Shown here piece by piece: positions 638 to 18,985 of a stretch of DNA of 32,000 nucleotides. The notes beneath the pieces are model-generated. The model did not search any database, was not told the DNA's origin, and worked only from the letters and a program-made list of their open reading frames with translations. A program made the position numbers and the translations under genes. This DNA is from Bellilinea caldifistulae (lineage in GTDB: Bacteria; Chloroflexota; Anaerolineae; Anaerolineales; Anaerolineaceae). The first letter of the stretch is position 1. Each line of letters begins with the position of its first letter. The DNA lies in the NCBI RefSeq assembly GCF_001306055.1, contig NZ_LGHJ01000013.1, forward strand, positions 90,001 through 122,000. The letters run 5' to 3'.

Positions 638-2059
638 TCAAAGAACCGGATTATGTGAACTGCGCTGCACGAAACGCCCCATTCCAGCTTTACCAAGCCA
701 TTGATCACCATCTACAATGAGATTCCCGCGCAGGAACACCTTTTCCGGAAAGCCGGTTAAAGTCCAGCCTTCGAACAAGTTATAGTCGGTGCGATGATGC
801 GATTTTGCCACACCATACTCAACAACCCGCCGGGCATCCCAAACCACAATATCTGCATCTGCTCCCGGCATCAGACTGCCCTTGCGCGGATACAGGCCGA
901 AGATTTTGGCAGGATTTGTGCTGGTCAAAGCAACAAACTGAGAAGGAGTCAGCCGACCGCTGGCAACCCCCTCGCTCCACAACACCGGAAGACGGTCGCC
1001 TATTGCCGGTAAACCATTGGGAATTTTGGTGAAATCCTTCTTGCCCAGCTCCTTGCCGGGAATAGCCACCGGTTGACCCTCGTACAGGATCGCTTTCGTC
1101 CCATCGAAGAAAAATGGACAATGATCCGTTCCAACCACCTGCAAGATTCCCTTTTCCAGACCTTGCCAGAGCCGTTCGTTATCTTCCGTGGTGCGCATGG
1201 GAGGCGAACAGACCCATTTAGCCCCATCCGGCCGGCGCAGATGATCAATGGTAAAAAACAGATACTGTGGACAGGTTTCTCCCATCACCGGCAGACCGCG
1301 ATCGCGGGCATAAGCCAGTTGATCAACCTCACCGGCTGCATTCATGTGGACGATATAGAGGGGCGCCTCCGCCATGGCCGCCAGAGCCGCACCGCGCAAA
1401 ACCGCCTCAACCGCCGTCCATGCCGGCCGGGTCAAAGCATGCCATTCGGGTGTGGTATGGCCGGCAGCCAATGCCTCGGCAATCAGCAATTCAATCACAT
1501 CGCCATTTTCAGCGTGAAGCATGGTCAGAAAGCCCAGATCTCTGGCAATCCGCATCACCCGAAAGATGTTCTCATCCGAAAGGCGCAGGCGGTTGTTGTA
1601 AGCACTGAAAACTTTCAGGGAAGTAATCCCCATCCCCGCCAGATAAGGAATTTCGGCTTGTATCTGAGCATCCAGGCGGCTGATATTCATGTGAAAACTG
1701 AAATCAATCGCCGCTTTGGGATCGGCTTTTTCCCGCCAGAGCGCAACACTTTTTTCAATTCCCTCGTCTTCCAGTGGGACAAAATCAATCACGGTGGTGG
1801 TACCCCCAAATGCTGCCGCCTTATGACCCGTATAATGGTCATCCGATGAAACCGTTCCAAACATGGGTAAATCAAAATGGGTGTGCGGATCAACCCCGCC
1901 CGGTAAAATCAAGCGATTGCTAACATCCACAACCTGCGTATCTTCGCTGATCGGTAGATCGGTTCCAATCATGGCAATTTTTTCGCCTTCAATCAAAATA
2001 TCTGCCCGGAACATCTCCGCAGCCGTAACCAGCGTGCCGCCTTTGAGAATCATCTTCAT
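638..2059 (-). CDS. dihydropyrimidinase / D-hydantoinase family cyclic amidohydrolase
   Basis: Motifs GGVDPHTHFDLPMFG (HxH metal site), SLKVF (carbamylated-Lys context), MLHAENGD and VVGTDHCPF are typical of hydantoinase/dihydropyrimidinase. AAGGAGG lies inside the first ORF-track codons, 5 nt before the second ATG, so the start is moved from 2074 to 2059. Confidence 0.9.
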   Translation of the reverse strand: MKMILKGGTLVTAAEMFRADILIEGEKIAMIGTDLPISEDTQVVDVSNRLILPGGVDPHTHFDLPMFGTVSSDDHYTGHKAAAFGGTTTVIDFVPLEDEGIEKSVALWREKADPKAAIDFSFHMNISRLDAQIQAEIPYLAGMGITSLKVFSAYNNRLRLSDENIFRVMRIARDLGFLTMLHAENGDVIELLIAEALAAGHTTPEWHALTRPAWTAVEAVLRGAALAAMAEAPLYIVHMNAAGEVDQLAYARDRGLPVMGETCPQYLFFTIDHLRRPDGAKWVCSPPMRTTEDNERLWQGLEKGILQVVGTDHCPFFFDGTKAILYEGQPVAIPGKELGKKDFTKIPNGLPAIGDRLPVLWSEGVASGRLTPSQFVALTSTNPAKIFGLYPRKGSLMPGADADIVVWDARRVVEYGVAKSHHRTDYNLFEGWTLTGFPEKVFLRGNLIVDGDQWLGKAGMGRFVQRSSHNPVL

Positions 2060-2086
2060 GGTTTCCTCCTTCATGCGGTTTACTAC

Positions 2087-2704
2087 TCAGCTTTGACCGA
2101 TCTGATCAATCTTCTTCAGTTCCTGAATGGTCTTTTGATCACCCAACATGGCCAGAAGCAGGGCATCTAAACCTTCCAACTGATCTGGCAATTCCTGAGC
2201 GGTATAGGTCTGTTGATGCAAAGCGCGTTCCCGCAAGCCGCGCCACAAAATCAGCCTTTCCTCATCATGCACCACCAGATCCTGAAGGGTTGTCGCCCGG
2301 TTCAGCCGCTCACCGGTAGTGTACAGGAAAGTTAACCTCCGCCAGCGGTGAGCATGAATGGGCGGTGTCAGTCTTTGCAATTCGCCCAGTTGAACTTTGT
2401 AATACTCTTCATGAGCGCGGGGATGGTCAGCCTCATGACGGAGCAATTCAGCCCGCGTGGTCAGTTCATGTCCGCGCACGGCTGCAAGGTAATGAATTCC
2501 CCAACGCCCGTTTTCTCCAAAGGCTGCCGTCTGATAGAACGCCAGGAAATCCACACTCAATACTTTTGGCGCCGAACGCAGAGGAATTCGATACCATCCC
2601 AAAACCCGGGCAATTTCCAGGTCGCGGGGGTGGGGAAGAACGGCTACCAGAATAATGGCATCTTCCGAGACAATTGAACGCAACGGAGAATACGTACTGG
2701 TCAT
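2087..2704 (-). CDS. hypothetical protein, 205 aa, no family recognised
   Basis: Clean ORF, 12-27 nt upstream of the hydantoinase start on the same strand. It is His/Arg/Glu-rich (HEADHPRAHEEYYK, HAHRWRR) with an N-terminal GWYRIPL segment. It has no TM helix, no signal peptide and no obvious SD. Confidence 0.6.
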   Translation of the reverse strand: MTSTYSPLRSIVSEDAIILVAVLPHPRDLEIARVLGWYRIPLRSAPKVLSVDFLAFYQTAAFGENGRWGIHYLAAVRGHELTTRAELLRHEADHPRAHEEYYKVQLGELQRLTPPIHAHRWRRLTFLYTTGERLNRATTLQDLVVHDEERLILWRGLRERALHQQTYTAQELPDQLEGLDALLLAMLGDQKTIQELKKIDQIGQS

Positions 2705-2744
2705 CGGCTATTCGTATTATAGCCGAAAGTCAAAACCGGCAAGG
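2705..2744 (-). promoter_or_regulatory. candidate promoter with a palindrome over the -10 and start site, for the 205-aa ORF / hydantoinase unit
   Basis: Minus strand reads TTGCCG (2742-2737), a 15-nt spacer, then TATAAT (2721-2716). The ATG at 2704 is only 11 nt past the -10, which gives a near-leaderless mRNA. The inverted repeat CGGCTAT-N7-ATAGCCG (2705-2725) overlaps the -10 and the predicted start site. The short spacer lowers confidence. Confidence 0.35.
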
Positions 2745-2776
2745 AGATTTGCCGTAGAGCGGATGATCCTCCAGCC

Positions 2777-2817
2777 ACAAAAAGAGGATGGGGAGGGTAA
2801 AAGAATTTACCCTCCCC
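2777..2817 (-). terminator. rho-independent terminator after the large PLP enzyme gene
   Basis: Perfect 12-bp stem GGGGAGGGTAAA (2790-2801) / TTTACCCTCCCC (2806-2817) with a 4-nt loop. On the minus-strand RNA it is followed by AUCCUCUUUUUGU. It starts 27 nt after the stop codon at 2844. Confidence 0.65.
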
Positions 2818-2843
2818 GCTGGCACCAACGGCATAGTTTTTGC

Positions 2844-4310
2844 TTAAAGCAGCCCGGCTCGCTGGTTGAATTCGGTAATTAAGGCATCAATTTCCGGCAC
2901 CTGTTTCTGAATGTTCGTCCAGTAGTCCGGATCGTACCACTGCGCCACAATCTCTTCATAGGTCTTGCCCTGCTGCTCAACCCAGGTGTAGTACTTGAGA
3001 TTGTGGATCCGGCGGCGGTCTGCGTAGGTCAACTCAATCAAGTGATCGGTGGTTTCGCCGTGTAAATCACGGGCAAAAGTCTCGGCGGCATCGTAAGTTG
3101 TAAATTCACCAAACTGTTCGCGGTATTCCTGAATCCGGCTGGAATACAACTCCATCGAGTCGGTCATCACGAACAACATGATGTCGTTTTCGCCCATTTC
3201 GTAGTATTTGGCGGCTTTGATGGCTGAAAGCATGTTGGCAATCCCGGAAAAGCCGAACAGATCTAATTGCTGCACCAGTTCTGCCGGAACGCCCTTCTTG
3301 ACCAGATACTCACGGCCAGTTGGTTCATTGAAGAGACGCAACAAATTGACTACCGAATTATCATCAATTGCAACCACCATATCGGTGTTCTTCACATTGT
3401 GAATCCATGGCACATGCTTATCGCCGATACCTTCGATGCGGTGTGAACCAAAACCATTTTCCAACAAAGTCGGGCATTGAAGCGCCTCACTGGCGACAAT
3501 GATGCTGCGCGGGAAAATCTGCTTCATATAATCACCGCAGGCAATCGTACCGGCTGAACCGGTTGTCAATGCCACACCCCGGTAATTGTCCTTCGGCCCC
3601 ATCACCTGTTGCAAAACTTCTTCCATTGCGTGTCCGGTCACATCGTAATGCCACAGGTAATTGCCAAACTCTTCAAATTGATTGAAGATCATCAAATCTT
3701 CACCGGAGCGGCGCAGTTCCCAGCACTTATCGAAAATTTCTTTGACATTTGATTCAGAGCCGGGCGTGGCAATCACTTCTCCAGCAATCCGGGAAAGCCA
3801 CTCGAAACGTTCCTTACTCATACCCTCCGGCAGGATGGCAATAGACTGACAACCCAACAAGGCCGAGTCGTACGCCCCGCCGCGGCAGTAGTTACCGGTA
3901 GAAGGCCAGACCGCTTTTTGAGTGGTGGGGTCGAACTGACCGGTCACCAGCCGCGGCACCAGGCAGCCAAAAGCCGCGCCGACTTTATGCGCCCCGGTCG
4001 GGAACCATTTGCCCACCAGACCGATCAAGCGGGCTGGCACACCGGTCAGGCTGGAGGGTAATTCGATGAAATTGACGCCGCCGAACAAACCGCCAAAGGG
4101 TTTCGGCTCGTTTTTCCAGGTGATTCGGAAAAGGTTGCGGGGGTGTACATCCCATAAGCCAATGTTTCGCAATTCTTCCTTGATGTGGTCGGGTATTAAG
4201 TTCGGATTTTTCATTTGGGCAAAAGTCGGAATGATAATATTGCGTTCCTTTACCCGTTTTAATGCCCGCTCTCTGCGTTCTGGAATTACGGTTAAATCAA
4301 TGGTTGCCAT
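2844..4310 (-). CDS. large (about 488 aa) fold-type-II PLP-dependent enzyme (Trp-synthase-beta / cysteine-synthase superfamily), specificity unknown
   Basis: GKWFPTGAHKVGAAFG is the putative PLP lysine context. PSTGNYCRGGAYDSALLG and TTGSAGT resemble the Gly-rich phosphate loop. GAGGAG lies 7 nt before the sixth codon (ATG at 4310), so the start is trimmed from 4325. The first ORF-track ATG overlaps the GT2 stop (TAATG). Confidence 0.7.
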   Translation of the reverse strand: MATIDLTVIPERRERALKRVKERNIIIPTFAQMKNPNLIPDHIKEELRNIGLWDVHPRNLFRITWKNEPKPFGGLFGGVNFIELPSSLTGVPARLIGLVGKWFPTGAHKVGAAFGCLVPRLVTGQFDPTTQKAVWPSTGNYCRGGAYDSALLGCQSIAILPEGMSKERFEWLSRIAGEVIATPGSESNVKEIFDKCWELRRSGEDLMIFNQFEEFGNYLWHYDVTGHAMEEVLQQVMGPKDNYRGVALTTGSAGTIACGDYMKQIFPRSIIVASEALQCPTLLENGFGSHRIEGIGDKHVPWIHNVKNTDMVVAIDDNSVVNLLRLFNEPTGREYLVKKGVPAELVQQLDLFGFSGIANMLSAIKAAKYYEMGENDIMLFVMTDSMELYSSRIQEYREQFGEFTTYDAAETFARDLHGETTDHLIELTYADRRRIHNLKYYTWVEQQGKTYEEIVAQWYDPDYWTNIQKQVPEIDALITEFNQRAGLL

Positions 4311-4324
4311 CTGTTTTCTCCTCA

Positions 4325-5281
4325 TTAAGATTTGGTATTTTTTTCAAAATCTTCTGGGCTTTCGCTGACGATATACAGCGGCCGGCCCTTGGCTTCATCG
4401 TAAATTCGCCCGATATATTCGCCCAAAATTCCCAGGCAAATCAGCTGGACACCCCCCAGAAACAACACAGCGATGAGGGTGGTTGCCTGACCAAAAAACG
4501 CTTGCGCCTGAATGGCTCGCAAGATAATCACCACCGGAATGGCTAAAATAGCCAACCCCGCCGCAAAGAAGCCCAGATAAGTCGCCAGTTGGAGCGGAAA
4601 ATAGGAAAAACCGGTGATCGCGGTCAACGCAAGCCGCAGCATTTTACGCAGCGGGTATTTGGTTTCACCGGCAAAGCGGGGTGCCCGCCGGTAAAGCACG
4701 CCGGTTTGACGAAAACCCACCCATGCCGACATGCCGCGCAAAAAGCGATGATGTTCGCGCATGGTGTTCAATACATTGACCACCTTTCGATCCATCAATC
4801 GAAAGTCGCCGGCATCCATTGGAATATCCACATCTGTAATTCGGGCAATCAGACGATAGAAAAGGGAAGCCGTAAACTTTTTGAAGAAGGATTCCCCCTC
4901 CCTTTCGGCGCGCACCGCATAAACCACCTCATAACCTTCTTTCCACTTCTCAATCAAGTCCAAAATGACTTCCGGGGGGTCTTGCAAGTCAGCATCAATG
5001 ATCACAACAGCATCACCGCGGGAATAATCCAATCCGGCTGTCACCGCAATTTGATGACCGAAGTTTCTCGCAAACATGACCGGCCGTACACGTGGGTCTT
5101 GATTAGCCAACTCACGGATGATGTTAGGAGATTCATCCACCGATCCGTCATTGACCAGCACCAACTCCCATGGTTCAGCCGTGCGCTCCATAACTTCGAC
5201 CATGCGGCGGTAAAGCTCATGCAGACATGAGGCTTCGTTGTAGACCGGCACGACGATGGAATAAACTGGTTTTTCGGTCAT
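4325..5281 (-). CDS. family 2 glycosyltransferase, polyprenyl-phosphate sugar transferase type (GtrB/ArnC/DPM1-like)
   Basis: Motifs [20 protein letters not shown] and [11 protein letters not shown] (DxD), plus two C-terminal TM helices ([26 protein letters not shown] and [23 protein letters not shown]). Confidence 0.8.
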
Positions 5282-5318: not shown

Positions 5319-6566
5319 TCAAATTCCCAGATGTTTTTTTAAGGCACTCATGGTAGGCTCGATCACCGGCGCAGCCGGCACTGCTTGCATGGCAGCCCGG
5401 ATGTCCTTCAACCCGCTGCCGGTGTTAATGACCAGTACCGGATCCTCGGGCGTAATCTTACCCAAGGCAATGGCTTTCTTCAACCCAACATACGCTGTTG
5501 ATCCGGCCGGTTCGGCAAAGATACCAACCGGTCCAAGTTCTCCAATCCCGGCAATGATTTCTTCGTCCGAAACGGTGATGTACTCACCCCCCGTCTGACG
5601 GGCTGCCCGCACAGCCCGAACCCCATCTCGCGGCAAATCCACCGAAATGCTGTCGGCAATCGTGGTCGCCTGCACGGGTTCGATTTCTTCGGTGCCCTTA
5701 AAGAAGGCGTTGGCAACCGCTGCCGACTTTTCAGACTGGATGCCAAAAATGCGCGGCATTTTTTGCAGCCAGCCGAGCGCCTGCAAATCTTTGAAGCCTT
5801 TGTGCAGGCCTGAAATGATGTTGCCATCCCCCACTGAGACAAATACAGCCAGCGGTGGCAAATCCCGTTTCAGGTTCAAAATAACGTGTTCCCAAATCTC
5901 AAATGCAGCCGTTTTCTTACCTTCTGCCGTGAAGGGATTGTACCCCGTGTTGCGGCAGTACCAGCCGAACTCTTCAGCAGCCTGAATGGTCAGGTCAAAA
6001 GCCGAGTCGTAATTTCCATCCACCAGAATGACCTGTGCCCCGTACACCAGCAATTGGGCCACCTTAGCCGGGGGAGCCGTCTTAGGTGCAAAAATGACCG
6101 CTTTATGACCAACGGCGGCTGCCATTCCCGCCAGAGCCGCACCGGCATTCCCGGTTGAAGCGGTCACCACCACTTCGGCTCCAATTTGCCGGGCACGCGC
6201 CACCACCACCGAAGAAGCCCGGTCTTTAAACGAAGCGGTTGGATTACGCCCTTCGTCTTTGATCCACAAATGTCGCAGCCCCAACTTCTCAGCCAGGCGG
6301 GTCGGGTAATAGGTCGGCGTCCAGCCAGCCATGCGCAGCGGTGTACCTTCTCCCCCCGGGTCTTTGACGGGTAATAACGGCAAATAGCGCCACAGCGAAT
6401 AATCCGAGCGAGAAATGATGTCATTAATTTCGTATTTCTGCCGGATAGCAGCATAATCCAGCACAACATCCAGATTTCCGCCATCTTTCGGACAGGTATA
6501 GGTTACCTGTCCCGGCGCATACTCGGTGTTGCATAACGAACAGCGATAGCCAATAAATTCACTCAT
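5319..6566 (-). CDS. thrC: threonine synthase family PLP enzyme
   Basis: Motifs NPTASFKDRASS (PLP Lys), TASTGNAGAALAG and NTGSGLKD, with an N-terminal CSLC...TCP zinc-ribbon-like segment as in archaeal-type ThrC. It lies 28 nt downstream of the ABC permease gene, so its role in this context (housekeeping or catabolic paralog) is open. Confidence 0.65.
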   Translation of the reverse strand: MSEFIGYRCSLCNTEYAPGQVTYTCPKDGGNLDVVLDYAAIRQKYEINDIISRSDYSLWRYLPLLPVKDPGGEGTPLRMAGWTPTYYPTRLAEKLGLRHLWIKDEGRNPTASFKDRASSVVVARARQIGAEVVVTASTGNAGAALAGMAAAVGHKAVIFAPKTAPPAKVAQLLVYGAQVILVDGNYDSAFDLTIQAAEEFGWYCRNTGYNPFTAEGKKTAAFEIWEHVILNLKRDLPPLAVFVSVGDGNIISGLHKGFKDLQALGWLQKMPRIFGIQSEKSAAVANAFFKGTEEIEPVQATTIADSISVDLPRDGVRAVRAARQTGGEYITVSDEEIIAGIGELGPVGIFAEPAGSTAYVGLKKAIALGKITPEDPVLVINTGSGLKDIRAAMQAVPAAPVIEPTMSALKKHLGI

Positions 6567-6594: not shown

Positions 6595-7599
6595 TTATTC
6601 ATTCTCAAACGGTACGCCCAGTGAAGCCGGCGGCGAAGTACGCAATGCCCGTAGAACATTGGCAAGTCCCTTGCGGGTTTTCTCCGGTAAGGCTGCCAGC
6701 GTACGATCCACCCACTCAGCATTACCGATGTTGACCAGAAGGAGAGTTAAGATCATCAACGGGAAAGGCGCAACCTGTAAAACCTGGGAAGGGATGTTTG
6801 GCAAACTGGGTTGAAGCACCAAACCCAGCCACTGCAACAAACCAAACAGGTAAGCCCCAAATGCTGCCCGAAGCGGATTCCAGCCGCCAAAAATCGTCAG
6901 TGCAAGAGCAATCCACCCGAATCCATCCAGCCCGGAGATGGTACCCTTCCAGCCGGCTTTGACGCTCAAGGAAAACATCGGTCCCGCCAGACCTGCCAGC
7001 ATACCGCCCAATACGGTGTAAAAATACCGCATTCGATTGACATTTGCCCCGCGCACAAAAGCCGTTGCCGGTTTTTCCCCAATCCCCTGCAACATCAGAC
7101 CCGGACGGGTTTTGAAAATAAACACATACGAAACAATGATCAAAAGGAAACTGGCATAGACCAGTACATCCTGTTGAAAGAAGATGACCCCGATAATCGG
7201 AATATCCGCCAGCCCAGGAATGGGCAGGGAAGGCACCCGCGGCCCCTGCAAGCCCATGAATGGATTTCCAAGATAATAAGCCAGATCCCGGCAGGTAAGC
7301 GCCAGAATGAAACCAACCGCAACCTGAGACTGCTTGAGGGTGATGCTGCTAAACGCCACAATCAATGCCACCAGACCGCCGATGAATGCCCCCGCCAGAA
7401 AGCCCAAAAACAGACTGTTGGTGGTAACGGCAACCGCAAAACCTGCCATGGCGGTCAATAAGATTGTGCCGTTCAGGGAAAGGTTGATCACTCCGCTGCG
7501 TTCCGCAAAAGTTTCACCGATGGTTGCAAAGACAATCGGCGCCGATGAGGCTAAAACACCAGCCAGACCAATCAGGATGATTTGAGTATCCATTTCCAT
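6595..7599 (-). CDS. ABC transporter permease (BMP/nucleoside-type, NupQ/YufQ-like)
   Basis: 334 aa, about 8-10 TM helices, same operon as the BMP-family binding protein. The real start could be the second ATG at 7593. Confidence 0.8.
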   Translation of the reverse strand: MEMDTQIILIGLAGVLASSAPIVFATIGETFAERSGVINLSLNGTILLTAMAGFAVAVTTNSLFLGFLAGAFIGGLVALIVAFSSITLKQSQVAVGFILALTCRDLAYYLGNPFMGLQGPRVPSLPIPGLADIPIIGVIFFQQDVLVYASFLLIIVSYVFIFKTRPGLMLQGIGEKPATAFVRGANVNRMRYFYTVLGGMLAGLAGPMFSLSVKAGWKGTISGLDGFGWIALALTIFGGWNPLRAAFGAYLFGLLQWLGLVLQPSLPNIPSQVLQVAPFPLMILTLLLVNIGNAEWVDRTLAALPEKTRKGLANVLRALRTSPPASLGVPFENE

Positions 7600-7606
7600 A
7601 ACCTCA

Positions 7607-8653
7607 TCAAGAGCGTGTCAGACGGCGGCGGACGCCGTCCATCAACAACACGAACAGCACCAGCGAACCTTGCAACACCCCGGAAAGGGATGAATCCAGT
7701 TTCAAGACAATCGGCAACTGGATACTGCCGATATTCAAGGCGGCAAAGAACAAGGCAACCGGAGCTGCCCAAAGGGCTTGATAATTGACCAGCATGGCAA
7801 CCATCATGCCGAGAAATCCATAGCCGGACGAGATCGAAGGGATCAATCGGTGATAGACAGCTAAAACCTGAGTAGCGCCCGCCAGTCCAGCCATCAAACC
7901 GCACAACAAAAATGCCATCAACATGTAGCGGGTCGTAGGAATGCCCATCAAAAAGGCCGCCCTGCCGTTCCGCCCAACCGCTTTCAATCGCAGCCCAAAA
8001 TAAGTCCCGCGCAACAAAATATACACAATTGCAATTGCGATAATTCCCATTGCCAGTGCCAGAGGGCTGAGGCGAAAACCGGGCAGGGTAGGCAGCCATA
8101 ATTCCAGCGGGAATGGCTCGGTACCGCTCATCGAGCCAACCCCCGGACGTTTCCAGGGGCCGAAGATGAGCCAGATGGTCAATGCAGTCGCCACAAAGTT
8201 CAAACCAAGGCCGCCAAAAATTTCGTTAACGTTCCCAAAAATCTTCAGCAGGCCCACCAATCCTGCCCAGAACATACCTCCTAACGCCCCTGCCAGAAAT
8301 CCAACCGCCACAATTAACGTGGGTGGCAGGTCAGTCGGCTGTAATACTCGCAGCGCCCAGGTAGTGAAAATTGCCCCCAGCGTAATCTGACCTTCAATAC
8401 CGATGTTCCACAAACCCGCTGTAAAGGTCAGCAGCAATCCAGCCGTTGCTAATAGAAGGGGGGTCCAGGCTACCAGAATATCGTCAACTTTTGTCGGCGA
8501 GCCCAGGGCACCGGTAATGATGTTTTGATAAACCTGAAGAGGATCAGCCCCAGAAATCAACATGACAACCGTTGTAAAAGCCAACGCCAACAAAACGGCC
8601 AACGCTTGAAATCCAATGCCGCTCCAGCGTGAGGATGTCTTCATCATCGTCAT
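7607..8653 (-). CDS. ABC transporter permease (BMP/nucleoside-type, NupP/YufP-like)
   Basis: 348 aa polytopic protein. AAGGTG lies 5 nt before the ATG, and a 7-nt gap separates it from the next permease gene. Confidence 0.8.
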   Translation of the reverse strand: MTMMKTSSRWSGIGFQALAVLLALAFTTVVMLISGADPLQVYQNIITGALGSPTKVDDILVAWTPLLLATAGLLLTFTAGLWNIGIEGQITLGAIFTTWALRVLQPTDLPPTLIVAVGFLAGALGGMFWAGLVGLLKIFGNVNEIFGGLGLNFVATALTIWLIFGPWKRPGVGSMSGTEPFPLELWLPTLPGFRLSPLALAMGIIAIAIVYILLRGTYFGLRLKAVGRNGRAAFLMGIPTTRYMLMAFLLCGLMAGLAGATQVLAVYHRLIPSISSGYGFLGMMVAMLVNYQALWAAPVALFFAALNIGSIQLPIVLKLDSSLSGVLQGSLVLFVLLMDGVRRRLTRS

Positions 8654-8675
8654 ACCGTCACCTTGTGCCAGGGGA

Positions 8676-11570: not shown

Positions 11571-11855
11571 TTTCTCCTCCATTGTTCAATTAAAAGCGAG
11601 AGATTTGGAAACGTTTGACTGTGGGATCAGGGATAAACTCAAATCTTTTCCTTCTACCAACCTCCTTTCTTGATCTTTGAAAAACATAGGGAAACCATCT
11701 TGACCACCCCATTCCGGGTTTACATTAAGGGTCGGGGGGCAAACCCTGAATTACCTTACTATTTTACACGAAATAGATACCGGTAGAAGAAGAAACTCGC
11801 TCCAAACGCTGGCAATATAATTAAACCCCAGATTAGCTTAAATCATTTGAGGGGT

Positions 11856-11898
11856 GGGTCTGCCTGATACGATCATATCAGGCAGACCCTTGTTTTTT
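11856..11898. terminator. terminator-like hairpin immediately after carbamate kinase, with its T-tract on the plus-strand side
   Basis: Perfect 14-bp stem GGGTCTGCCTGATA (11856-11869) / TATCAGGCAGACCC (11876-11889) with a 6-nt loop. On the plus strand it is followed by TTGTTTTTT (11890-11898). On the minus-strand RNA the hairpin is preceded by an A-tract and followed by ACCCCUCAAAUGAUUU. Confidence 0.5.
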
Positions 11899-11903: not shown

Positions 11904-12857
11904 TTATGGGACGATCCAGGTACCGGTTTCGCCCTTCAACGCGCGGCCGATATTTTCCGGATTGGTGATTAATGCCTGTTTGCCGCCGGCTTCCAGGAAC
12001 CAGATGATCGCCTGAATCTTGGGCGCCATCGAGCCTTTGGCAAAGTGAGTGCCTTCCGCCAGATACTGCTTGGCTTCCGCTAATGTCATGCGGTCAATCC
12101 ACTTCTGGTCGGGTTTTCCGAAATTCAAGGCAACTTTTTCCACGGCGGTGGAAATGACCATCAGGTCGGCATTGATCTCGCGCGCCAGAAGACTGCTGGC
12201 GTAATCCTTGTCAATCACCGCTGCCACGCCCTGCAAGTCACCCTGCTCATTGCGGACGACGGGGATACCACCACCGCCAACCGTAATGACAACCACACCG
12301 GCATCCAGCAGGGTTTTAACCGCCGGCAATTCAACCACTTCCTGTGGAATGGGAGAAGCAACCACCCGCCGCCAGCCCCGGCCGGCATCCTCGACAACCT
12401 TCCAACCCATTTCCTTCTCGCGGCGTTTTGCCTCGGCTTCATCCATAAAACCACCAATGGGTTTGGTAGGGTTCTGAAAAGCCTTGTCATTCGGATCAAC
12501 CCGCACCTGCGTAACCACCGTTGCGACCGATTTTTCGATTCCGCGGCGGCGCAGTTCATTTTGCAGGTTTTGCTGCAAGGCATAGCCAATGGCACCCTGT
12601 GAGTCGGCCCCGCAGACATCCAGCGGAACTTCGTGCATTCCTTCTACCTTTGCGGCAATTTCGGAACGGCGCAGAATAAACCCAACCTGCGGGCCATTGC
12701 CATGTCCAATCGCCACATCCCAACCCGCCTCAATCATATCCACGATATGATAGGCGGTCTCTTTGGCGGCCTGGTACTGATCTTCAACCGATACTTTGGA
12801 GTTATCCTTGATCAGCGAATTTCCGCCGATTGCCACAACTGCCAGTTTTTTAGCCAT
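11904..12857 (-). CDS. arcC: carbamate kinase
   Basis: Motifs VVAIGGNSL, GHGNGPQVG, ITVGGGGIPVV and AVIDKDYASSLLA. The ORF-track start at 12866 is a TTG too close to the SD, while the ATG at 12857 lies 11 nt after GAGAGGAG. Confidence 0.9.
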   Translation of the reverse strand: MAKKLAVVAIGGNSLIKDNSKVSVEDQYQAAKETAYHIVDMIEAGWDVAIGHGNGPQVGFILRRSEIAAKVEGMHEVPLDVCGADSQGAIGYALQQNLQNELRRRGIEKSVATVVTQVRVDPNDKAFQNPTKPIGGFMDEAEAKRREKEMGWKVVEDAGRGWRRVVASPIPQEVVELPAVKTLLDAGVVVITVGGGGIPVVRNEQGDLQGVAAVIDKDYASSLLAREINADLMVISTAVEKVALNFGKPDQKWIDRMTLAEAKQYLAEGTHFAKGSMAPKIQAIIWFLEAGGKQALITNPENIGRALKGETGTWIVP

Positions 12858-12894
12858 AAATTCCAATTCTCCTCTCTCAAAGTGATAATTTTTT

Positions 12895-13875
12895 TTAGCC
12901 CATCGTCAGCGCCATCACCGCCATCTGGGCATGCATGCGGTTTTCGGCTTCATCGTACACAACCGATTGAGGGCCGTCCATCACACCGTCGGTGACTTCG
13001 ATGTTGCGGTCGGCCGGCAAGGGATGCATATAAATAGCGTCTTCTTTGGCCAGCGCCATCTTGCGTTCATCCGTGATCCAGTGAGAGTATTTCTTGATAA
13101 TCTCAGCGCCCTCATTGGCATCCGGCGTATGCACCATTGCGCCCCATGATTTGGCGTAGATGATATCGGCATCCTTGAAAGCCTCTTCCATATCATCTAC
13201 CACTTCAAAACCGACTTTGTACTTACGTGCCTGCTCCTGCGCCATCTCCATCACTTCCGGCATCAGGCGGAATTCAGGCGGATGCGCTAAAACCACATCC
13301 ATGCCAAAGCGCGGCATCTGCACAATCAAAGATTGCGGCACGGACATCGGCTTTTGATAGGAAGCCGCATACGCCCAGGAAACCACCATCTTTTTACGGC
13401 GCAAATCGCGCCCTTTCTTTTCGACAATGGTCATCAGGTCTGCCAGACACTGGAAGGGATGCCAGATATCGCACTGCATATTCAACACAGGCACACGGGA
13501 GTATTTAGCCACTTCGCTGATGTACTTGTTGCCGACACCCCAGTCCACATGCCGAATTGCAATCCCATCGAAATAGCGGCCGAAAATCTCACCAATTTCT
13601 TTGGGGGTATCGCCATGGGCAATTTGAGTGGTGCGGCTCTCGATAAAGGCGGCATGCCCGCCAAGGTGCGCCATGCCCGCTTCAAATGAACCGCGTGTGC
13701 GGGTGCTGCTGAAGAAGAACAGCATCGCCAGCACTTTATCGCGCAGGTAGGCGGTAGACTCATTCAAAGCACGCTTGCGCTTGAGGTCAAAAGCAACATC
13801 CAGGATAGTTTCGACTTCTTCTTTCGAGAAATCGAGATCCCCGATTAAGTCACGTCCGTGAAGAAAGGTTTGCAT
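12895..13875 (-). CDS. OTCase-superfamily transcarbamylase of unknown specificity (YgeW/AOTCase-like, not canonical ornithine carbamoyltransferase)
   Basis: The carbamoyl-phosphate motifs SSTRTR and HPFQ are present. HCLP is replaced by HPLP (YMHPLPAD). The ornithine motif DxxxSMG is absent, with IIYAKSWGAM in its place. GGAGG lies 4 nt before the ATG. Confidence 0.8.
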   Translation of the reverse strand: MQTFLHGRDLIGDLDFSKEEVETILDVAFDLKRKRALNESTAYLRDKVLAMLFFFSSTRTRGSFEAGMAHLGGHAAFIESRTTQIAHGDTPKEIGEIFGRYFDGIAIRHVDWGVGNKYISEVAKYSRVPVLNMQCDIWHPFQCLADLMTIVEKKGRDLRRKKMVVSWAYAASYQKPMSVPQSLIVQMPRFGMDVVLAHPPEFRLMPEVMEMAQEQARKYKVGFEVVDDMEEAFKDADIIYAKSWGAMVHTPDANEGAEIIKKYSHWITDERKMALAKEDAIYMHPLPADRNIEVTDGVMDGPQSVVYDEAENRMHAQMAVMALTMG

Positions 13876-13902: not shown

Positions 13903-14859
13903 TTACTCCATCTTGCCCAGAACCAGCGCAAGCAGTGCCATGCGCATCACAACGCCGTTGTAGGCTTCCTGCCAGTAACGTGACCAGCGAGTAATGTCCA
14001 CATCGGTGGGGATTTCATCCATACGCGGCAGCGAGTGCAGCAGGATCGCATCCGATTTGGCTTTGGTGGTGAGCAATTCGCGGGTAATCTTGTAATTCGA
14101 GGGGGTCATGCCGACGTCCTTGCCAGCGCGCTCATCGCGGGCTTTGGTGTAGTCCGGCTGCACCACCGGCTCAACCAGAATGACATCCGCCTCGGCAATT
14201 GCCTGCTCGACATGCTCCACCTCGCGGAAGTTCAAACTGTAGGATTTCAGTTCTGCCTTGAATTCTTCGGTCAGCGACATTTCCGGCGGGGAAACGAAGG
14301 TGATCGGGCAGTCGAATTGAGTCAAAGCATAGCCGAGCGAGTGCATGGTGCGCATGCGCATATCGCCTACTGCAAGCCACTTCAAGCCGTCAATGCGGCC
14401 TTTTTCGCGCAGCACGGTGTATAGATCGGTCAAAATCTGGGTGGGATGTTCACCCCAGCCATCCCCACCGTTGATGATCGGTACCGAAGCCCACTTGGCC
14501 GCTTCGTGCGGTGCTCCCTGCTGGAAGTGACGCATGACGATCACATCACCGTAGAACTCCAGCATTTTAACGGTATCCTTGATCGATTCTTGATACCAGT
14601 CACCGGCGCGGGTCATCTTGGCATCCGCGAAACCGGTCACGTGCCCGCCCAAACGGTGCATGGCTGCTTCGTGCGCCAGGCGGGTGCGGGTGCTGGGTTG
14701 ATAAAAAGCCGTCACCAGGGTTTTATCCTTGCACAGGTCAATATTTTTTCGTTCGCGGGCAATGTCTTCCATTTTCCGCGCCACTTCAAACACATGGAAG
14801 AATTCCTGCCGTTCGAAGTCCTTCAAAGACAGAATATCACGACCAGCAAAACTACGCAT
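13903..14859 (-). CDS. ATCase-like transcarbamylase paralog with altered second-substrate residues
   Basis: Shows PSTRTR, VMRH, GDGWGEHPTQ, GDMRMRTMHS and LHSLPRMDEI...NGVVMRMALLALVLG, which match the E. coli/archaeal-type PyrB layout. However, the TRxQ aspartate-binding segment reads EPVVQ, KGE is absent (DWYQES instead), and HPLPR is HSLPR. There is no pyrI or pyrC next to it. Confidence 0.75.
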   Translation of the reverse strand: MRSFAGRDILSLKDFERQEFFHVFEVARKMEDIARERKNIDLCKDKTLVTAFYQPSTRTRLAHEAAMHRLGGHVTGFADAKMTRAGDWYQESIKDTVKMLEFYGDVIVMRHFQQGAPHEAAKWASVPIINGGDGWGEHPTQILTDLYTVLREKGRIDGLKWLAVGDMRMRTMHSLGYALTQFDCPITFVSPPEMSLTEEFKAELKSYSLNFREVEHVEQAIAEADVILVEPVVQPDYTKARDERAGKDVGMTPSNYKITRELLTTKAKSDAILLHSLPRMDEIPTDVDITRWSRYWQEAYNGVVMRMALLALVLGKME

Positions 14860-14884
14860 TTTGATTACCTCCGTTTGTATTTTT

Positions 14885-14927: not shown

Positions 14928-14992
14928 TGATCCGGTCAAAACCGAAATTGCAGCCATTGCAGCCAACAAGGTTTTGAAATCACCTCCTCTTT

Positions 14993-15736
14993 TCACACAT
15001 GGTTAACGTTCGGATGGCTGGCTACTCTCCGTACCAGATGGAAACGAAAATATCCGGGCAGGAAGTAACTGTGGGAGTAATCCACCACCCGCCCGCCATC
15101 ATCATAAAGATATACCTCAAACAGCAGCAGGGGATCGCCACGTTGAATTTCCAATGCTTTTGCAATTTCCGAAGAAGCCGAAGTGGCATTGATCTCCGTG
15201 TAAGAATTCATCAGGTTAAGGTCACCCCGTTTGAGTAAAAAGTCCAGCACCGAGCCGGTGAAACCCTGCTCTAACTCGGCGGGGGAAAGGATGTTTTCCG
15301 GCAAAATGTCAATCAGGTAGGCAACCGGCCTGTGCTCCGTGGTGATCACCCGCTCAACCTTTATGAGAGGTGTCCCTTTTTCCACATTCAGGTTGTCAGC
15401 CAGCATCGGATCTGCTTCCAGGCGGATAATCTTAACCTCGCCCATGTACACTTTAAGGTTGATTTTTTCGGCCAGGCTCTCAATGCTTTGCAAAACTTCC
15501 AGACCGGTTTCAATCACCTGCACATGACTGACCACGAAAGTGCCAATTCCCTGTCTTCGGCGAATTAAGCCCTGCCCTTCGAAGGAGCGCATCGCCTCTC
15601 GCAGGGTTGCCCGCGAAACCCCCAGTTGCTTGGCAAGCGCAGGTTCGGAAGGCAGCCGCTCGCCTGGCGGAGTTCGGGCAATAATTTCAGCCAGTTCTAC
15701 TTGAAGTCTTTGAAAAGGATGGATCATCGTATCCAT
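14993..15736 (-). CDS. GntR-family transcriptional regulator, HutC subfamily (UTRA effector domain)
   Basis: N-terminal winged HTH LPSEPALAKQLGVSRATLREAMRSFEGQGLIRRRQGIGTFV, with a C-terminal UTRA-like fold. The ORF-track start at 15760 is a TTG overlapping the ade stop. GAGAGAGG followed by ATG at 15736 is the better start. Confidence 0.85.
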   Translation of the reverse strand: MDTMIHPFQRLQVELAEIIARTPPGERLPSEPALAKQLGVSRATLREAMRSFEGQGLIRRRQGIGTFVVSHVQVIETGLEVLQSIESLAEKINLKVYMGEVKIIRLEADPMLADNLNVEKGTPLIKVERVITTEHRPVAYLIDILPENILSPAELEQGFTGSVLDFLLKRGDLNLMNSYTEINATSASSEIAKALEIQRGDPLLLFEVYLYDDGGRVVDYSHSYFLPGYFRFHLVRRVASHPNVNHV

Positions 15737-15749
15737 GTTTCCTCTCTCA

Positions 15750-17543
15750 TCAGGATTCAACGACCGGCAGGAAGCGGAAACGGCTTACATCCACCAGTCC
15801 GCGGTCGGAGATACGCAACGCTGGGATCACCACCAGCGCCAGTAAACTGAGTTGCATATTTGGATTATTCAATGAACATCCGCAAGCCTTAAAGCCTTGC
15901 AAGACGCTGTCGGCTTCTGCCGCCACCATTTCGGCGCGTTTGTTGGACATCAAACCGGCGATGGGAAGGTGAACCATTCCGATGATCTGGCCATCCTTGA
16001 TCACCACCTGCCCGCCGCCAACTTCTGCAAGATGATTGGCCGCCTGCGCCATCATCGCCTCATCCGTCCCCACAACAATCATGTGATGACTGTCATGAGC
16101 CACCGTAGTGGCAATCGCACATTTCTGGTCAAAACCAAACCCCGAGACCAATCCCACCTGCACAACCCCGCTGGCATGGTGGCGTTCAACCAGCGCAATT
16201 TTTGCTAGGTCGGTTTCCCCCGCCAACATCACTTGCCCATTGACCACTTTCACTTCGCGCTTCAAATGGCGAGTAGGCGCTTGATTTTCAATCACACCAA
16301 TGACATTGGCAAGTACTTTTCCATTTTCAGGGTGCTGGACAGCCAGATTAAAATCCTGCGGGGTAAGCGGACGCTTCAACCGAACCGAATGGACTGCCCA
16401 GTCGGGATAAGCATAAACCGGTAATTCGATCAGCAAATTTCCACCGCTGGCAATCACTTTCCCCTTCGCAATGACCAAATCCGCACGGAAATTGACCAGA
16501 TCTTCGACAATGACAATATCGGCAAAGCGGCCGGGAGCAATCATCCCCAGATCGCGGCTGACGCCAAAGTGAACCGCAGTGTTAAGGGTTGCCATCTGGA
16601 TTGCCTGCATCGGTTTCAACCCCTGTGCAATTGCATGGCGGAGAACACGATCCATGTGGCCTTCCTGAACGAGCGTAGCCGAATGCGAATCATCCGTGCA
16701 GAGGATGAAATGGCGCGGGTCTAAACCTAAATCTGTAACGGCTTTGACCTGAGCCGCTACATCATGCCAGGCTGAGCCGTAACGCATCATCACCTTCATC
16801 CCCTGACGCACCCGCTGAACCGCATCCTCCAGAGTTGTGCCTTCATGGTCATCCTCCGGGCCGCCGGCCACATAACCGTGAAACGGTAAACCCAGATCCG
16901 GCGAAGCGTAATGACCACCAATTACCTTCCCGGCTTTGCGGGTTTCCTCTAATTCTGCATGAACGTTTGGGTCACTGTTGAAAACGCCGGGAAAATTCAT
17001 CATCTCGCCAAGCCCGATGATTCCCTCCCACCGCATTGCCTCAGCAATCTCTTTGGGGCCAATCGCCGCACCGGGTGTTTCCAAACCGGGAGCCGAAGGA
17101 ACACACGATGGCATTTGCACGAATACGTGAATTGGCTGATTGGCTGCCTCATCCGCCATCAGCTGCACCCCTTTCAATCCAAATACATTGGCAATCTCGT
17201 GAGGGTCAATGAACATGCCGGTTGTGCCGCGGGGTGCCACGGCGCGCACAAATTCTGTCACGGTCAACATACCCGATTCGACGTGCATATGGGCATCCAG
17301 CAAGCCGGGGCTGAGGTAGCGCCCCTCGGCCTCAACGATGCGGGTGTGTTCGCCAATCGTATGCTCTGCCGAATCTCCCACAAAAGCAATTCTCCCGTCC
17401 AAAACCGCTACATCCGTAGAAGGAATAATCTCACCCGACTGCACGCAAACCCATTTGCCGTTGCGAATAACCAGGTCAGCCGGAATGCGCCCCATGGCGC
17501 AATCCACCAATCTACGAGTGTTCTCGGCGGTTAACTTTTCCAT
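15750..17543 (-). CDS. ade: adenine deaminase
   Basis: 597 aa with PGLLDAHMHVESGM, GTTGMFIDPHEIANV and CTDDSH, the length and layout typical of Ade/AdeC. GGAGGT lies 6 nt before the ATG. Confidence 0.9.
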   Translation of the reverse strand: MEKLTAENTRRLVDCAMGRIPADLVIRNGKWVCVQSGEIIPSTDVAVLDGRIAFVGDSAEHTIGEHTRIVEAEGRYLSPGLLDAHMHVESGMLTVTEFVRAVAPRGTTGMFIDPHEIANVFGLKGVQLMADEAANQPIHVFVQMPSCVPSAPGLETPGAAIGPKEIAEAMRWEGIIGLGEMMNFPGVFNSDPNVHAELEETRKAGKVIGGHYASPDLGLPFHGYVAGGPEDDHEGTTLEDAVQRVRQGMKVMMRYGSAWHDVAAQVKAVTDLGLDPRHFILCTDDSHSATLVQEGHMDRVLRHAIAQGLKPMQAIQMATLNTAVHFGVSRDLGMIAPGRFADIVIVEDLVNFRADLVIAKGKVIASGGNLLIELPVYAYPDWAVHSVRLKRPLTPQDFNLAVQHPENGKVLANVIGVIENQAPTRHLKREVKVVNGQVMLAGETDLAKIALVERHHASGVVQVGLVSGFGFDQKCAIATTVAHDSHHMIVVGTDEAMMAQAANHLAEVGGGQVVIKDGQIIGMVHLPIAGLMSNKRAEMVAAEADSVLQGFKACGCSLNNPNMQLSLLALVVIPALRISDRGLVDVSRFRFLPVVES

Positions 17544-17568
17544 TTCTCTACCTCCGGTAAGAACGCAA

Positions 17569-17590
17569 CCTGTTTCTCAGAAGAAACAGG
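17569..17590 (-). promoter_or_regulatory. intercistronic hairpin between the two deaminase genes
   Basis: CCTGTTTCT / AGAAACAGG form a 9-bp perfect stem with a 4-nt loop. On the minus-strand RNA it is followed by UUGCGUUCUU, so it may be a weak attenuator or stabiliser. Confidence 0.4.
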
Positions 17591-17596
17591 TCGCTG

Positions 17597-18985
17597 CTAA
17601 ATGGATAATAAGCGTCTTGCCCGTTGGTTGTGAAGTTCAATCTGACGCATCAGGTCAATCGTCTGCAATTCACCCTTGCGGACGATGAAACGGCCATGCA
17701 CGGCGGTGTAATCCACCGGGCGCGGTTGACAAAATACCAGCGCTGCTACCGGGTCATGCAGCGCACCGGCGTAGTCCAATCGGTTCAGGTTGATGGCGAT
17801 AAAATCCGCGCATTTTCCAACTTCCAGCGAGCCGATGTCGGTGCGTCCCAGCACGGCCGCTCCGCCGCGGGTAGCCAGTTCCAATGCCTGCCGGGCAGTC
17901 ATCAAAGGTGGTGCGGCTTCCTGACTGAGAGAAGCGCCCGCCAGACCTGCCCCCAGGCGTGCCAGCAACATCGCCTGACGCGCCTCAGCCAGCATATGCG
18001 AACCGTCGTTGGAAGCGGAGCCGTCCACGCCCAGCCCCACCTTCACCCCGGCTTGCAGGTAATTCATCACCGGTGCAATGCCCGAAGCCAACCGCATATT
18101 CGAAGAGGGACAATGCGCAACCCCGCAGCCCGTATGGGCAAAAACCTGAATCTCGGCCGGGTTGACATGAACGGCATGGGCAAACCAGACATCCTCACCC
18201 ACCCATTCAAGCGATTCCATGTAACCGACCGGCCGATAGCCAAACTTCTGCTGGCAGAAAACCTCTTCATCCTGCGTTTCGGCCAGATGGGTGTGCAAAT
18301 GAACCCCGTACTCCCGCGCCAGCCGGGCGCTCTCGCGCATCAGCTCGCCCGTGACGCTGAAAGGCGAACACGGTGCCAGCACAATTTGCACCATGGAACC
18401 GGGATTGGGATCATGGTAGGTTTGAATCAAACGCTGCGAATCGCGCAGAATGTCCTCCTCGCTGTCCACCACCGAGTCGGGCGGCAAACCACCCTTGCTT
18501 TCACCCAGACTCATCGAACCCCGCGAGGCATGAATACGCAGCCCAACCTGGCGGGCTGCTTCGATTTCATCATCCAGCCGCGAACCATTCGGGAAAAGGT
18601 ACAGGTGATCCGATGCAGTGGTGCAGCCGGAGAGCGCCAGCTCTGCCAGCGCGGTTTGGGTCGAGATGAAGATATCTTCGGGATTCATCCGCGCCCAAAT
18701 GGGATACAGCGTTTTCAACCAGTTGAACAAATTAGCATCCTGAGCAGCCGGTACCGCCCGCGTCAGGGTCTGGTAAAAATGGTGATGGGTATTGATCAAA
18801 CCGGGCAGCACCACATGACCGGAAAGATCCAGTACCTCATCGGCGGTTTGGGGCAATTCTTCGCTTTTACCAACCTGTTCTATAAAGCCATCGCGGATGA
18901 AAAGACCTCCACCCGCAATCTCGCGGCGGAGGCCATCCATCGTGACCAGAACCATAGCATTTTTGACGAGCAGCGTTTGCGTCAT
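17597..18985 (-). CDS. COG0402-type amidohydrolase, 8-oxoguanine deaminase-like (guanine/cytosine deaminase, SsnA relatives)
   Basis: LPGLINTHHHFYQTLTR is a signature I associate with 8-oxoguanine/isoxanthopterin deaminases. Also HLHTHLAETQDE, FAHAVH and GLGVDGSASND. The exact substrate is not determinable from sequence. Confidence 0.75.
   Translation of the reverse strand: MTQTLLVKNAMVLVTMDGLRREIAGGGLFIRDGFIEQVGKSEELPQTADEVLDLSGHVVLPGLINTHHHFYQTLTRAVPAAQDANLFNWLKTLYPIWARMNPEDIFISTQTALAELALSGCTTASDHLYLFPNGSRLDDEIEAARQVGLRIHASRGSMSLGESKGGLPPDSVVDSEEDILRDSQRLIQTYHDPNPGSMVQIVLAPCSPFSVTGELMRESARLAREYGVHLHTHLAETQDEEVFCQQKFGYRPVGYMESLEWVGEDVWFAHAVHVNPAEIQVFAHTGCGVAHCPSSNMRLASGIAPVMNYLQAGVKVGLGVDGSASNDGSHMLAEARQAMLLARLGAGLAGASLSQEAAPPLMTARQALELATRGGAAVLGRTDIGSLEVGKCADFIAINLNRLDYAGALHDPVAALVFCQPRPVDYTAVHGRFIVRKGELQTIDLMRQIELHNQRARRLLSI

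Follow-up and report, generated by a model that had tools for sequence, protein, structure and literature searches.

This locus of Bellilinea caldifistulae (Anaerolineae, Chloroflexota) raises the question of whether a run of genes for purine deaminases, carbamoyltransferases, a carbamate kinase, an importer, pyridoxal-phosphate (PLP) enzymes and a hydantoinase serves one pathway, and if so, which one. The array occupies positions 638-18985 of a window of 32,000 nucleotides (contig NZ_LGHJ01000013.1, positions 90,001 to 122,000), and an earlier interpretation made from the letters of the window (the sequence-only reading) had taken it for a nucleobase or ureide catabolic cluster that makes carbamoyl phosphate and ATP. 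Based on the analysis reported here, we consider it reasonably likely that the array is a conserved purine-catabolic region of the Anaerolineae, the core of which would form the lower, ATP-yielding half of a variant of the reductive urate (2,8-dioxopurine) pathway. The proposal is built on the family assignments of the proteins, on the loss of the residues that specify aspartate carbamoyltransferase (ATCase), ornithine carbamoyltransferase (OTCase) and threonine synthase, on the conservation of gene order, and on the co-location of the same genes with hallmark genes of the urate pathway in two phyla.

The window proteins were assigned by Pfam and NCBIfam profile searches against curated cut-offs, and profile scores are given below against those cut-offs. 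The array consists of 15 consecutive genes, all on the minus strand and in the order described by the sequence-only reading, and the intergenic spacing ranges from overlap up to 139 bp, with one exception of 321 bp between the genes of the carbamate kinase and the importer's binding protein. Most family labels of that reading were borne out by Pfam and NCBIfam, whereas its YgeW-like transcarbamylase (TC2) reaches no NCBIfam cut-off, though it shares the YgeW-clade motifs; the membrane protein that it listed is present, but lies outside 638-18985 and is truncated by the window edge. The central trio of the array is as follows.

13903-14859, minus strand: TC1, a pseudo-ATCase carbamoyltransferase of 318 aa, with STRT and HPTQ kept and the C-terminal ATCase motifs changed
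12895-13875, minus strand: TC2, a short YgeW-clade carbamoyltransferase of 326 aa, with the shared YgeW-clade motifs
11904-12866, minus strand: carbamate kinase (CK), annotated as 317 aa (TIGR00746, 394.8 bits against 358)

TC1 retains the carbamoyl-phosphate motifs STRT and HPTQ, while its alignment with the ATCase of Pyrococcus abyssi indicates that R229 is replaced by P, Q231 by V and HPLP by HSLP, and these changes are invariant across 70 orthologues. It passes the ATCase model TIGR00670 (253 against 237) and fails NF002032 (230 against 263), and with STRT and HPTQ kept and HSLP and PVV altered it falls within the pseudo-ATCases as defined by Barba et al. (2013). Its fourth motif, PVV, fits none of the three published pseudo-ATCase subgroups (AIA-type, GX[SC] and VXP). 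TC1 thus resembles the pseudo-ATCases of Rubrobacter (Rxyl_2847) and Nocardioides JS614 (group 2) in keeping STRT and HPTQ, in its HSLP and in the loss of RxQ, but differs from the published ones in PVV (PMC4016543), with Rxyl_2847 being compared by its description and not by its sequence. The context is also alike, as in Nocardioides a pseudo-ATCase lies beside a ygeW homologue, xdhABC and hyuA (PMC4016543), and TC1, likewise in a purine setting, has a YgeW-like gene and that of a carbamate kinase for neighbours.

TC2 shares 36% identity with Escherichia coli YgeW and has in common with it the motifs SQIAHG, QCDxxHPxQ, SWAYxxSYxKPxSVPQ and KSW, but is short, with four insertions and the C-terminal tail of YgeW being absent from it, and reaches the cut-offs of neither the YgeW models (TIGR03316 and NF005538, 195-206 bits against 453-500) nor those of the OTC (256 against 281) and AOTC (253 against 288) families. 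The OTCase motif DxxxSMG reads KSWGAMV and HCLP reads HPLP, and both changes are invariant in the orthologues. Because the motifs that bind aspartate or ornithine are lost, TC1 and TC2 would not be biosynthetic enzymes of the pyrB or argF type, and this speaks against the refuting condition named by the sequence-only reading, that they prove to be the only pyrB/argF copies. CK is 53% identical to E. coli YqeA and its gene follows that of TC2 after a gap of 28 bp, so that the window holds a carbamoyltransferase and carbamate kinase pair. Phosphorolysis of a ureido group coupled to carbamate kinase for substrate-level ATP is also the logic of the arginine deiminase pathway; in contrast to it, none of the contexts examined has an arginine or agmatine deiminase, and TC2 lacks the ornithine-binding motif. 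A further parallel, drawn by description only, is the L-2,3-diaminopropionate transcarbamylase of antibiotic biosynthesis (PMC4581275), which interconverts 2,3-diaminopropionate and beta-ureidoalanine and is the reverse of a step proposed below, but is biosynthetic.

An alternative has to be weighed from here on, namely that the array is a composite of unrelated operons kept together by descent, with salvage deaminases, pyrB/argF-type transferases and CK as a source of carbamoyl phosphate, an importer, threonine and cysteine synthases, an envelope glycosyltransferase and a stand-alone dihydropyrimidinase. The public annotation names aspartate carbamoyltransferase, ornithine carbamoyltransferase, threonine synthase and cysteine synthase, and TC1 does pass TIGR00670, all of which fits such a composite; but TC1 lacks the aspartate-binding R229 and Q231, and TC2 lacks DxxxSMG and HCLP.

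Gene order was examined in 80 Anaerolineae species representatives by tblastn of the window proteins against the TC2-bearing loci, and the counts that follow are loci with the gene out of loci long enough to tell. TC2 is 86-99% identical among the 80 species, CK adjoins it in 77 of 78 loci and TC1 in 70 of 76; TC1, TC2 and CK are the invariant core. The GntR-family regulator gene is kept beside TC1 in 64/73 loci, and the neighbours of TC2 include the BMP-type ATP-binding cassette (ABC) importer in about 60/70, the 8-oxoguanine deaminase (49/60), the ThrC-like enzyme (47/64), the adenine deaminase (46/64), the family 2 glycosyltransferase (GT2; 38/62, in loci of the window type, and missing both in the variant loci and in the Woeseiaceae operon described below) and the 488-aa PLP enzyme (35/60). 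Complete colinearity was found in 21 of the 53 loci long enough to judge, and in a metagenome scan seeded with the hydantoinase (Hyd, identity 66-90%) most sufficiently long contigs keep the order ThrC-like, GT2, PLP enzyme, 205-aa protein, Hyd, membrane protein. The sequence-only reading had named lack of conservation in related genomes as the sign of a chance juxtaposition; as the array recurs in other Anaerolineae species, its order is not a chance one. Unusually strong conservation of TC1 and TC2, as is often met with central enzymes, and the separation of the blocks in some genomes would also suit the composite of unrelated operons.

What the conserved array could be doing is suggested by the reductive urate pathway of E. 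coli, in which XdhD forms 2,8-dioxopurine from urate by reduction, YgfK and SsnA act on the six-membered ring to dearomatise and open it, HyuA turns the hydantoin into 2,3-diureidopropionate by opening its ring, the ureido groups are removed by YgeW with phosphate and by YgeY through hydrolysis, YgeX yields pyruvate, and YgeW with YqeA produces ATP (PMC12507026; bioRxiv 10.1101/2025.04.24.650524); the two reports disagree on which ureido group YgeW takes off. The composition of uricolytic clusters varies, with UacX in place of YgfK and UacY in place of YgeW and YqeA, and SsnA neighbourhoods of Chloroflexota use an F420-type reductase (PMC12507026). The E. coli parts list invoked by the sequence-only reading (ygeW, ygeX, ygeY, hyuA, yqeA and ssnA) is correct. 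Like the K-12 cluster (ygeW-ygeX-ygeY-hyuA-yqeA; ygfK-ssnA-ygfM-xdhD), the window has a hydantoinase, a YgeW-clade transferase and a carbamate kinase, together with fold-type-II PLP enzymes, purine deaminases and uptake genes in one neighbourhood, and the same sequence of ring opening, ureido phosphorolysis, ATP formation and PLP-dependent deamination could be read from it. Unlike that cluster, it lacks XdhD, YgfK, SsnA, YgeY and YgeX and adds a second, ATCase-derived transferase; ThrC-like and 488-aa CysK-like enzymes stand in the stead of YgeX, an ABC importer in that of XanQ/GhxQ/UacT, and a HutC-type regulator in that of the sigma-54 regulator YgeV.

The missing hallmark genes are found beside the same module elsewhere. 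Of the 80 loci, 17 have at least one of SsnA, YgfK, Xdh-type subunits and YgeY no more than 10 kb away from TC2, and in eight loci the trio is directly followed by a ThrC-like gene (50-58% identity) with a 488-aa-type PLP gene nearby (43-75%); those eight rearranged loci are devoid of the importer, GT2 and the deaminases. In locus L071, TC1, TC2, CK and relatives of the ThrC-like and 488-aa PLP enzymes are accompanied by an alpha/beta hydrolase, SsnA (NF005540, 547 against 444), a PyrD/PreA-like protein and YgfK. Locus L052 runs from a Se-dependent xanthine dehydrogenase (XDH)-like gene through a major facilitator superfamily (MFS) transporter, YgeY (450 against 321), a GntR regulator, TC1, TC2, CK and the two PLP relatives to SsnA and an NpdG F420 reductase, the last two being neighbours as in the published Chloroflexota variants (PMC12507026). 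In L083, XdhD-like, TC2 and SsnA genes are tightly packed with gaps below 25 bp, and in Levilinea the PLP gene is separated from the pair of 205-aa protein and Hyd by an XdhABC-like set and a second adenine deaminase. Altogether, SsnA adjoins the module in L052, L068, L071, L083 and L084, YgfK occurs in L029, L051 and L071, and 10 related loci, as well as Levilinea, have an XdhD/DOPDH-type hydroxylase beside the orthologous module, while YgeY is found in 6 of the 80 related loci and YgeX in none (0/80).

A strict mutual exclusion of YgeY and TC1 was considered and rejected, as the two co-occur in five loci and YgeY replaces TC1 only in L047; TC1 is therefore not a simple replacement of YgeY. 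In that locus, from a Levilinea species (6741-9938), YgeY and a 660-aa polytopic membrane protein occupy the place of TC1 between GntR and TC2. As a separate observation, small four-helix-bundle genes of the TIGR02436 family occur between TC1 and TC2 and next to SsnA (L052, 9566-9946 and 19596-19991; also L068, L084 and L025).

Beyond the Anaerolineae, the closest full-length relatives of TC2 (57% identity) belong to metagenome-assembled genomes of Woeseiaceae/Xanthomonadales (Gammaproteobacteria), where the operon reads YgfK, SsnA, YgfM-like, XdhD-like, a PLP enzyme of the 488-aa type (PLP485), YgeY, TC2, CK and ThrC-like. Its proteins match those of the window at 56% (PLP enzyme), 57% (TC2), 57% (CK) and 46% (ThrC-like), its YgeY is 52% identical to that of E. 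coli, and TC1, YgeX and HyuA are absent from it. Hence a bona fide uricolytic operon of a second phylum contains TC2, CK and both PLP families, and both PLP families sit in such clusters where YgeX is absent. The view of the sequence-only reading, that the window is a differently built version of the E. coli neighbourhood, is upheld in both settings: by the module and both PLP enzymes beside SsnA, YgfK, XdhD-type genes and YgeY in other Anaerolineae, and by TC2, CK and both PLP enzymes in the Woeseiaceae operons, where TC1 is lacking. In a survey of such clusters, membership of PF00185 sufficed for a protein to be counted as YgeW, and membership of PF00291 for YgeX (PMC12507026), and counting at the Pfam level did not separate the TC1/TC2 pair or the two PLP families; a description of that pair or of these PLP families was not found in our literature search.

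The two PLP enzymes are encoded further along the array.

5319-6566, minus strand: ThrC-like PLP enzyme of 415 aa, passing TIGR00260 with altered threonine synthase motifs
2844-4310, minus strand: 488-aa PLP enzyme of the CysK/CBS fold, with a weak PALP/CysK match

The ThrC-like enzyme passes TIGR00260 (179 against 167) and fails NF006050 (262 against 303). Compared with four solved threonine synthases, its STGNT motif is changed to STGNA and NPxR(I/L)EGQKT to NPFTAEGKKT, and the Thr of STGNT and the Arg of NPxR are residues which we take to be ligands of the substrate phosphate in threonine synthase. All six ThrC-like proteins checked (the window, L088, L071, L052, L170 and L175) have STGNA, and Thr or Met for the Arg. 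Both changes are kept in the two SsnA-bearing loci, L052 and L071, as well as in L170, the urate operon of Woeseiaceae; L175 and Anaerolinea thermophila L088 have them too, in loci devoid of SsnA, YgfK or an XdhD-type gene. The enzyme is therefore probably not a threonine synthase, as judged from these residues. The 488-aa enzyme is about 80% identical across the Anaerolineae, and a fold search with its predicted structure gave CBS and CysK as the nearest at 20-25% identity, a generic result that holds no functional clue.

These data bear on the composite of unrelated operons as well. The pass of the ThrC-like enzyme on TIGR00260 and the hairpins between the blocks agree with it; on the other side, the ThrC-like enzyme lacks residues invariant in the solved threonine synthases, TC2, CK, the ThrC-like and the 488-aa PLP enzyme lie inside a YgfK-SsnA-XdhD-YgeY operon of another phylum, the same families lie beside SsnA and YgfK in rearranged Anaerolineae loci, and a HutC-type catabolic regulator adjoins TC1. 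We therefore regard the composite as unlikely and keep to a purine-catabolic region with an ATP-yielding core. The link to purines within the window is provided by the following features.

17597-18985, minus strand: amidohydrolase of the 8-oxoguanine-deaminase family, 462 aa (NF006055, 699.7 bits against 532)
15750-17543, minus strand: adenine deaminase, 597 aa (TIGR01178, 509.8 bits against 472.5; Pfam Adenine_deam_C)
14993-15760, minus strand: HutC-type GntR regulator, annotated as 247 aa, with GntR and UTRA domains
19082-19092, no strand: palindrome TTGTCTGACAA ahead of the deaminase operon, probably an operator for the HutC-type regulator

The amidohydrolase has the motif HHHFYQTLTR and the RefSeq name 8-oxoguanine deaminase; it fails as SsnA (136-140 bits on the SsnA models against 444-455; 23% identity with E. 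coli SsnA), and is predicted from its family to feed urate. Both deaminase genes are grouped with the HutC regulator gene directly upstream of TC1, and an arrangement of this kind suggests that the three are co-transcribed and link the locus to purines. The palindrome precedes the 8-oxoguanine-deaminase gene in all 50 of 50 orthologous loci and in other species lies upstream of TC1, GntR, the adenine deaminase or the ThrC-like gene, and this placement across species suggests one regulon. FolD may belong to the same regulon as the deaminase operon, because a copy with one mismatch (20057-20067) lies upstream of the real FolD start. A single operator shared by all four transcription units was sought and found in part, with the window copies being restricted to the deaminase operon and FolD. 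The palindrome at 19082-19092 overlaps a -35-like hexamer, TTGACA. The strand opposite the 8-oxoguanine deaminase gene has an open reading frame (ORF) of 461 aa (17624-19009, plus strand), in all likelihood an artefact of sequence composition.

The far end of the array supplies the hydantoinase, on which two other routes would depend.

638-2074, minus strand: Hyd, a HyuA-type D-hydantoinase/dihydropyrimidinase, annotated as 473 aa (TIGR02033, 527 bits against 393)
2087-2704, minus strand: conserved 205-aa protein, in a conserved position after the 488-aa PLP gene
3-635, minus strand: N-terminal part of a 530-aa membrane protein, truncated by the window edge

Hyd is 38% identical to E. coli HyuA over its full length, and its ORF has 478 aa, the annotated start being different (473 aa). 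If Hyd acted as a dihydropyrimidinase or a dihydroorotase-like enzyme, the locus could serve a reductive pyrimidine, orotate or hydantoin route, in which TC1 would phosphorolyse N-carbamoyl-aspartate or beta-ureidopropionate and CK would make ATP. Consistent with such a route, Hyd passes the dihydropyrimidinase equivalog TIGR02033, TC1 is derived from an ATCase, and a PyrD/PreA-like gene occurs in the L071 cluster. However, neither the window nor its flank has a dihydropyrimidine dehydrogenase or a gene for handling beta-alanine, TC1 no longer has the residues for binding the beta-carboxylate of aspartate, the recurrent neighbours are specific to purines (adenine deaminase, 8-oxoguanine deaminase, SsnA, YgfK and Xdh-type genes), and UacX, a PyrD-family protein, itself belongs to the urate cluster of Clostridioides difficile (PMC12507026). 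The pyrimidine route is thus quite improbable.

The second is a Rubrobacter-type route through allantoin and allantoate, with Hyd as allantoinase, TC1 as a ureidoglycine carbamoyltransferase acting on allantoate, and CK making ATP. Pseudo-ATCases encoded next to carbamate kinase and allantoinase have been proposed as ureidoglycine carbamoyltransferases (PMC4016543), TC1 has an H(T/S)LP motif, a feature ascribed to that enzyme (PMC4581275), and allantoate (diureidoacetate) is the lower homologue of 2,3-diureidopropionate. Yet Hyd scores 241 bits on the allantoinase model (cut-off 358) against 527 on that for D-hydantoinase, uricase, 5-hydroxyisourate (HIU) hydrolase and OHCU decarboxylase were not seen in the window and the related loci examined, and the neighbours are genes of the reductive and not of the oxidative pathway, so that we give this route a slim chance. 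Our preference remains with the reductive urate pathway, in which Hyd would open the hydantoin ring.

The remaining genes of the array, between CK and the hydantoinase, and the hairpins that interrupt it are as follows.

10248-11582, minus strand: substrate-binding lipoprotein of the BMP family (Pfam Bmp) with a repeat linker
8676-10139, minus strand: ABC transporter ATPase with two ABC_tran domains
7607-8653, minus strand: ABC transporter permease (BPD_transp_2)
6595-7599, minus strand: ABC transporter permease (BPD_transp_2)
4325-5281, minus strand: GT2, a glycosyltransferase of polyprenyl-phosphate type (Glycos_transf_2; PgfS/ArnC-like)
11856-11889, no strand: hairpin with a 14-bp stem, immediately 3' of the carbamate kinase stop codon
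2790-2817, minus strand: terminator-like hairpin with a 12-bp stem and a T-tail, 3' of the 488-aa PLP gene

Within the binding-protein gene, a 27-bp unit repeated four times in tandem (11364-11471) encodes a PQPTQPPAE linker, and the near-identical JGI contig L002 and Bellilinea sp. L006 have three copies, so the copy number varies among close strains. The best NCBIfam matches of the window ABC components, all far below cut-off, are the families of a 'putative B6 ABC transporter', and in A. thermophila the genes of the ABC permease and the ThrC-like enzyme have a PNPOx-like gene between them (L088, 7238-7639). The array probably comprises four transcription units. On the minus strand the hairpin at 11856-11889 has an A-tract before its stem and no T-tail, and its role as a terminator is therefore uncertain.

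GT2 is probably a passenger, and GT2, the 205-aa protein and the membrane gene are given no role in the proposed pathway. The 205-aa protein has no match in Pfam or NCBIfam, and a structure prediction from its single sequence was unusable (pLDDT 37); in A. thermophila, Levilinea and the majority of metagenome contigs its gene comes after that of the 488-aa PLP enzyme. Hyd is always followed by genes for the membrane protein of about 530 aa, a protein of about 191 aa, a Proton_antipo_M protein and one of about 392 aa (L087, 13676-20432, past the left edge of the window; L130, 11444-18219); this set is kept even with an unrelated upstream context, and in Bellilinea SelB comes after it.

Elsewhere the window encodes FolD, UDP-glucose dehydrogenase, a DNA methylase, a Band-7 protein, an orotidine-monophosphate-decarboxylase-like protein, UvrA, an MFS transporter, a ferric-reductase-like protein, and methylmalonyl-CoA epimerase and mutase, and the 9 kb past its left edge encode membrane proteins, SelB, YhfC and L21. 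The methylase is a stand-alone N6/N4 DNA methyltransferase (21617-22408) with no obvious restriction partner, and a similar one lies within the L052 urate cluster. Neither a riboswitch nor any other RNA family came up when the entire window was scanned against Rfam (E <= 1).

Several observations weigh against a single purine pathway encoded by the array. An Xdh-type enzyme, a YgfK/UacX reductase, SsnA, YgeY and YgeX were not found in the window or in the 9 kb past its left edge, in line with the earlier remark that the window has no Mo/Se hydroxylase, ring reductase or YgeY-type peptidase, and none of the 80 loci, those with SsnA included, has HyuA at 10 kb or less from TC2. The blocks are divided by hairpins and can occur apart: L004 and L005 keep TC1-TC2-CK alone, adjoining XdhC- and MocA-like genes and a distant YgfK relative, A. 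thermophila has the ABC, PNPOx, ThrC-like, GT2, PLP and 205-aa genes without the trio, and L130 has Hyd and its downstream membrane genes in an unrelated upstream context. Furthermore, the glycosyltransferase within the PLP operon is unexplained, TTGTCTGACAA lies in the window only upstream of the deaminase operon and FolD, with a total count not above chance, the presence of YgeY together with TC1 in 5 loci has to be accommodated, and conservation inside one class may partly reflect shared descent.

Taking both sides together, we propose the following scheme, for which we infer the substrates, the direction of flux and the ureido group taken by each transferase from sequence and by analogy with E. 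coli. The BMP-type ABC importer would take up a purine or nucleoside, and adenine deaminase and the 8-oxoguanine-deaminase-family enzyme would channel bases to hypoxanthine and urate, under a HutC-type repressor that, with the conserved palindromic operator, may control at least the deaminase operon. Opening of the pyrimidine ring would fall to enzymes that the window does not encode, namely a hydroxylase of the Xdh type, a reductase and SsnA, and would give ureidomethyl-hydantoin, which the HyuA-type hydantoinase could convert to 2,3-diureidopropionate. TC2 (YgeW-like) and TC1 (pseudo-ATCase) would then phosphorolyse the ureido groups to carbamoyl phosphate, CK would use it with ADP to make ATP, and the ThrC-like and/or the 488-aa CysK-like PLP enzyme would deaminate 2,3-diaminopropionate to pyruvate in the place of YgeX. 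The four steps of the sequence-only reading, namely ring opening by a cyclic amidohydrolase, phosphorolysis of the N-carbamoyl product, ATP harvest by carbamate kinase and deamination by PLP enzymes, agree with the E. coli pathway solved since then (PMC12507026; bioRxiv 10.1101/2025.04.24.650524). A more specific version, which we put forward only tentatively, is a double phosphorolysis in the Anaerolineae, with TC1 acting on the 2-ureido and TC2 on the 3-ureido group of 2,3-diureidopropionate to yield two ATP per purine and not one, and with the ThrC-like and 488-aa families replacing YgeX in at least two phyla.

It was not until 2023-2025 that the anaerobic urate pathway was resolved, in gut bacteria, and its published surveys pool PF00185 proteins with YgeW and PF00291 proteins with YgeX. 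The present locus points to a widespread environmental class that would use enzymes of its own where the pathway yields energy, and through it two new PLP-dependent reactions gain concrete candidate enzymes. Digesters, sediments and hot springs are rich in Anaerolineae. Should the second transferase take the place of the YgeY hydrolase, each purine would yield twice the ATP, which, if true, would help to explain how slow-growing fermenters live on the nucleobases of necromass. If the proposal holds, four families now named aspartate carbamoyltransferase, ornithine carbamoyltransferase, threonine synthase and cysteine synthase would have to be re-annotated in thousands of genomes.

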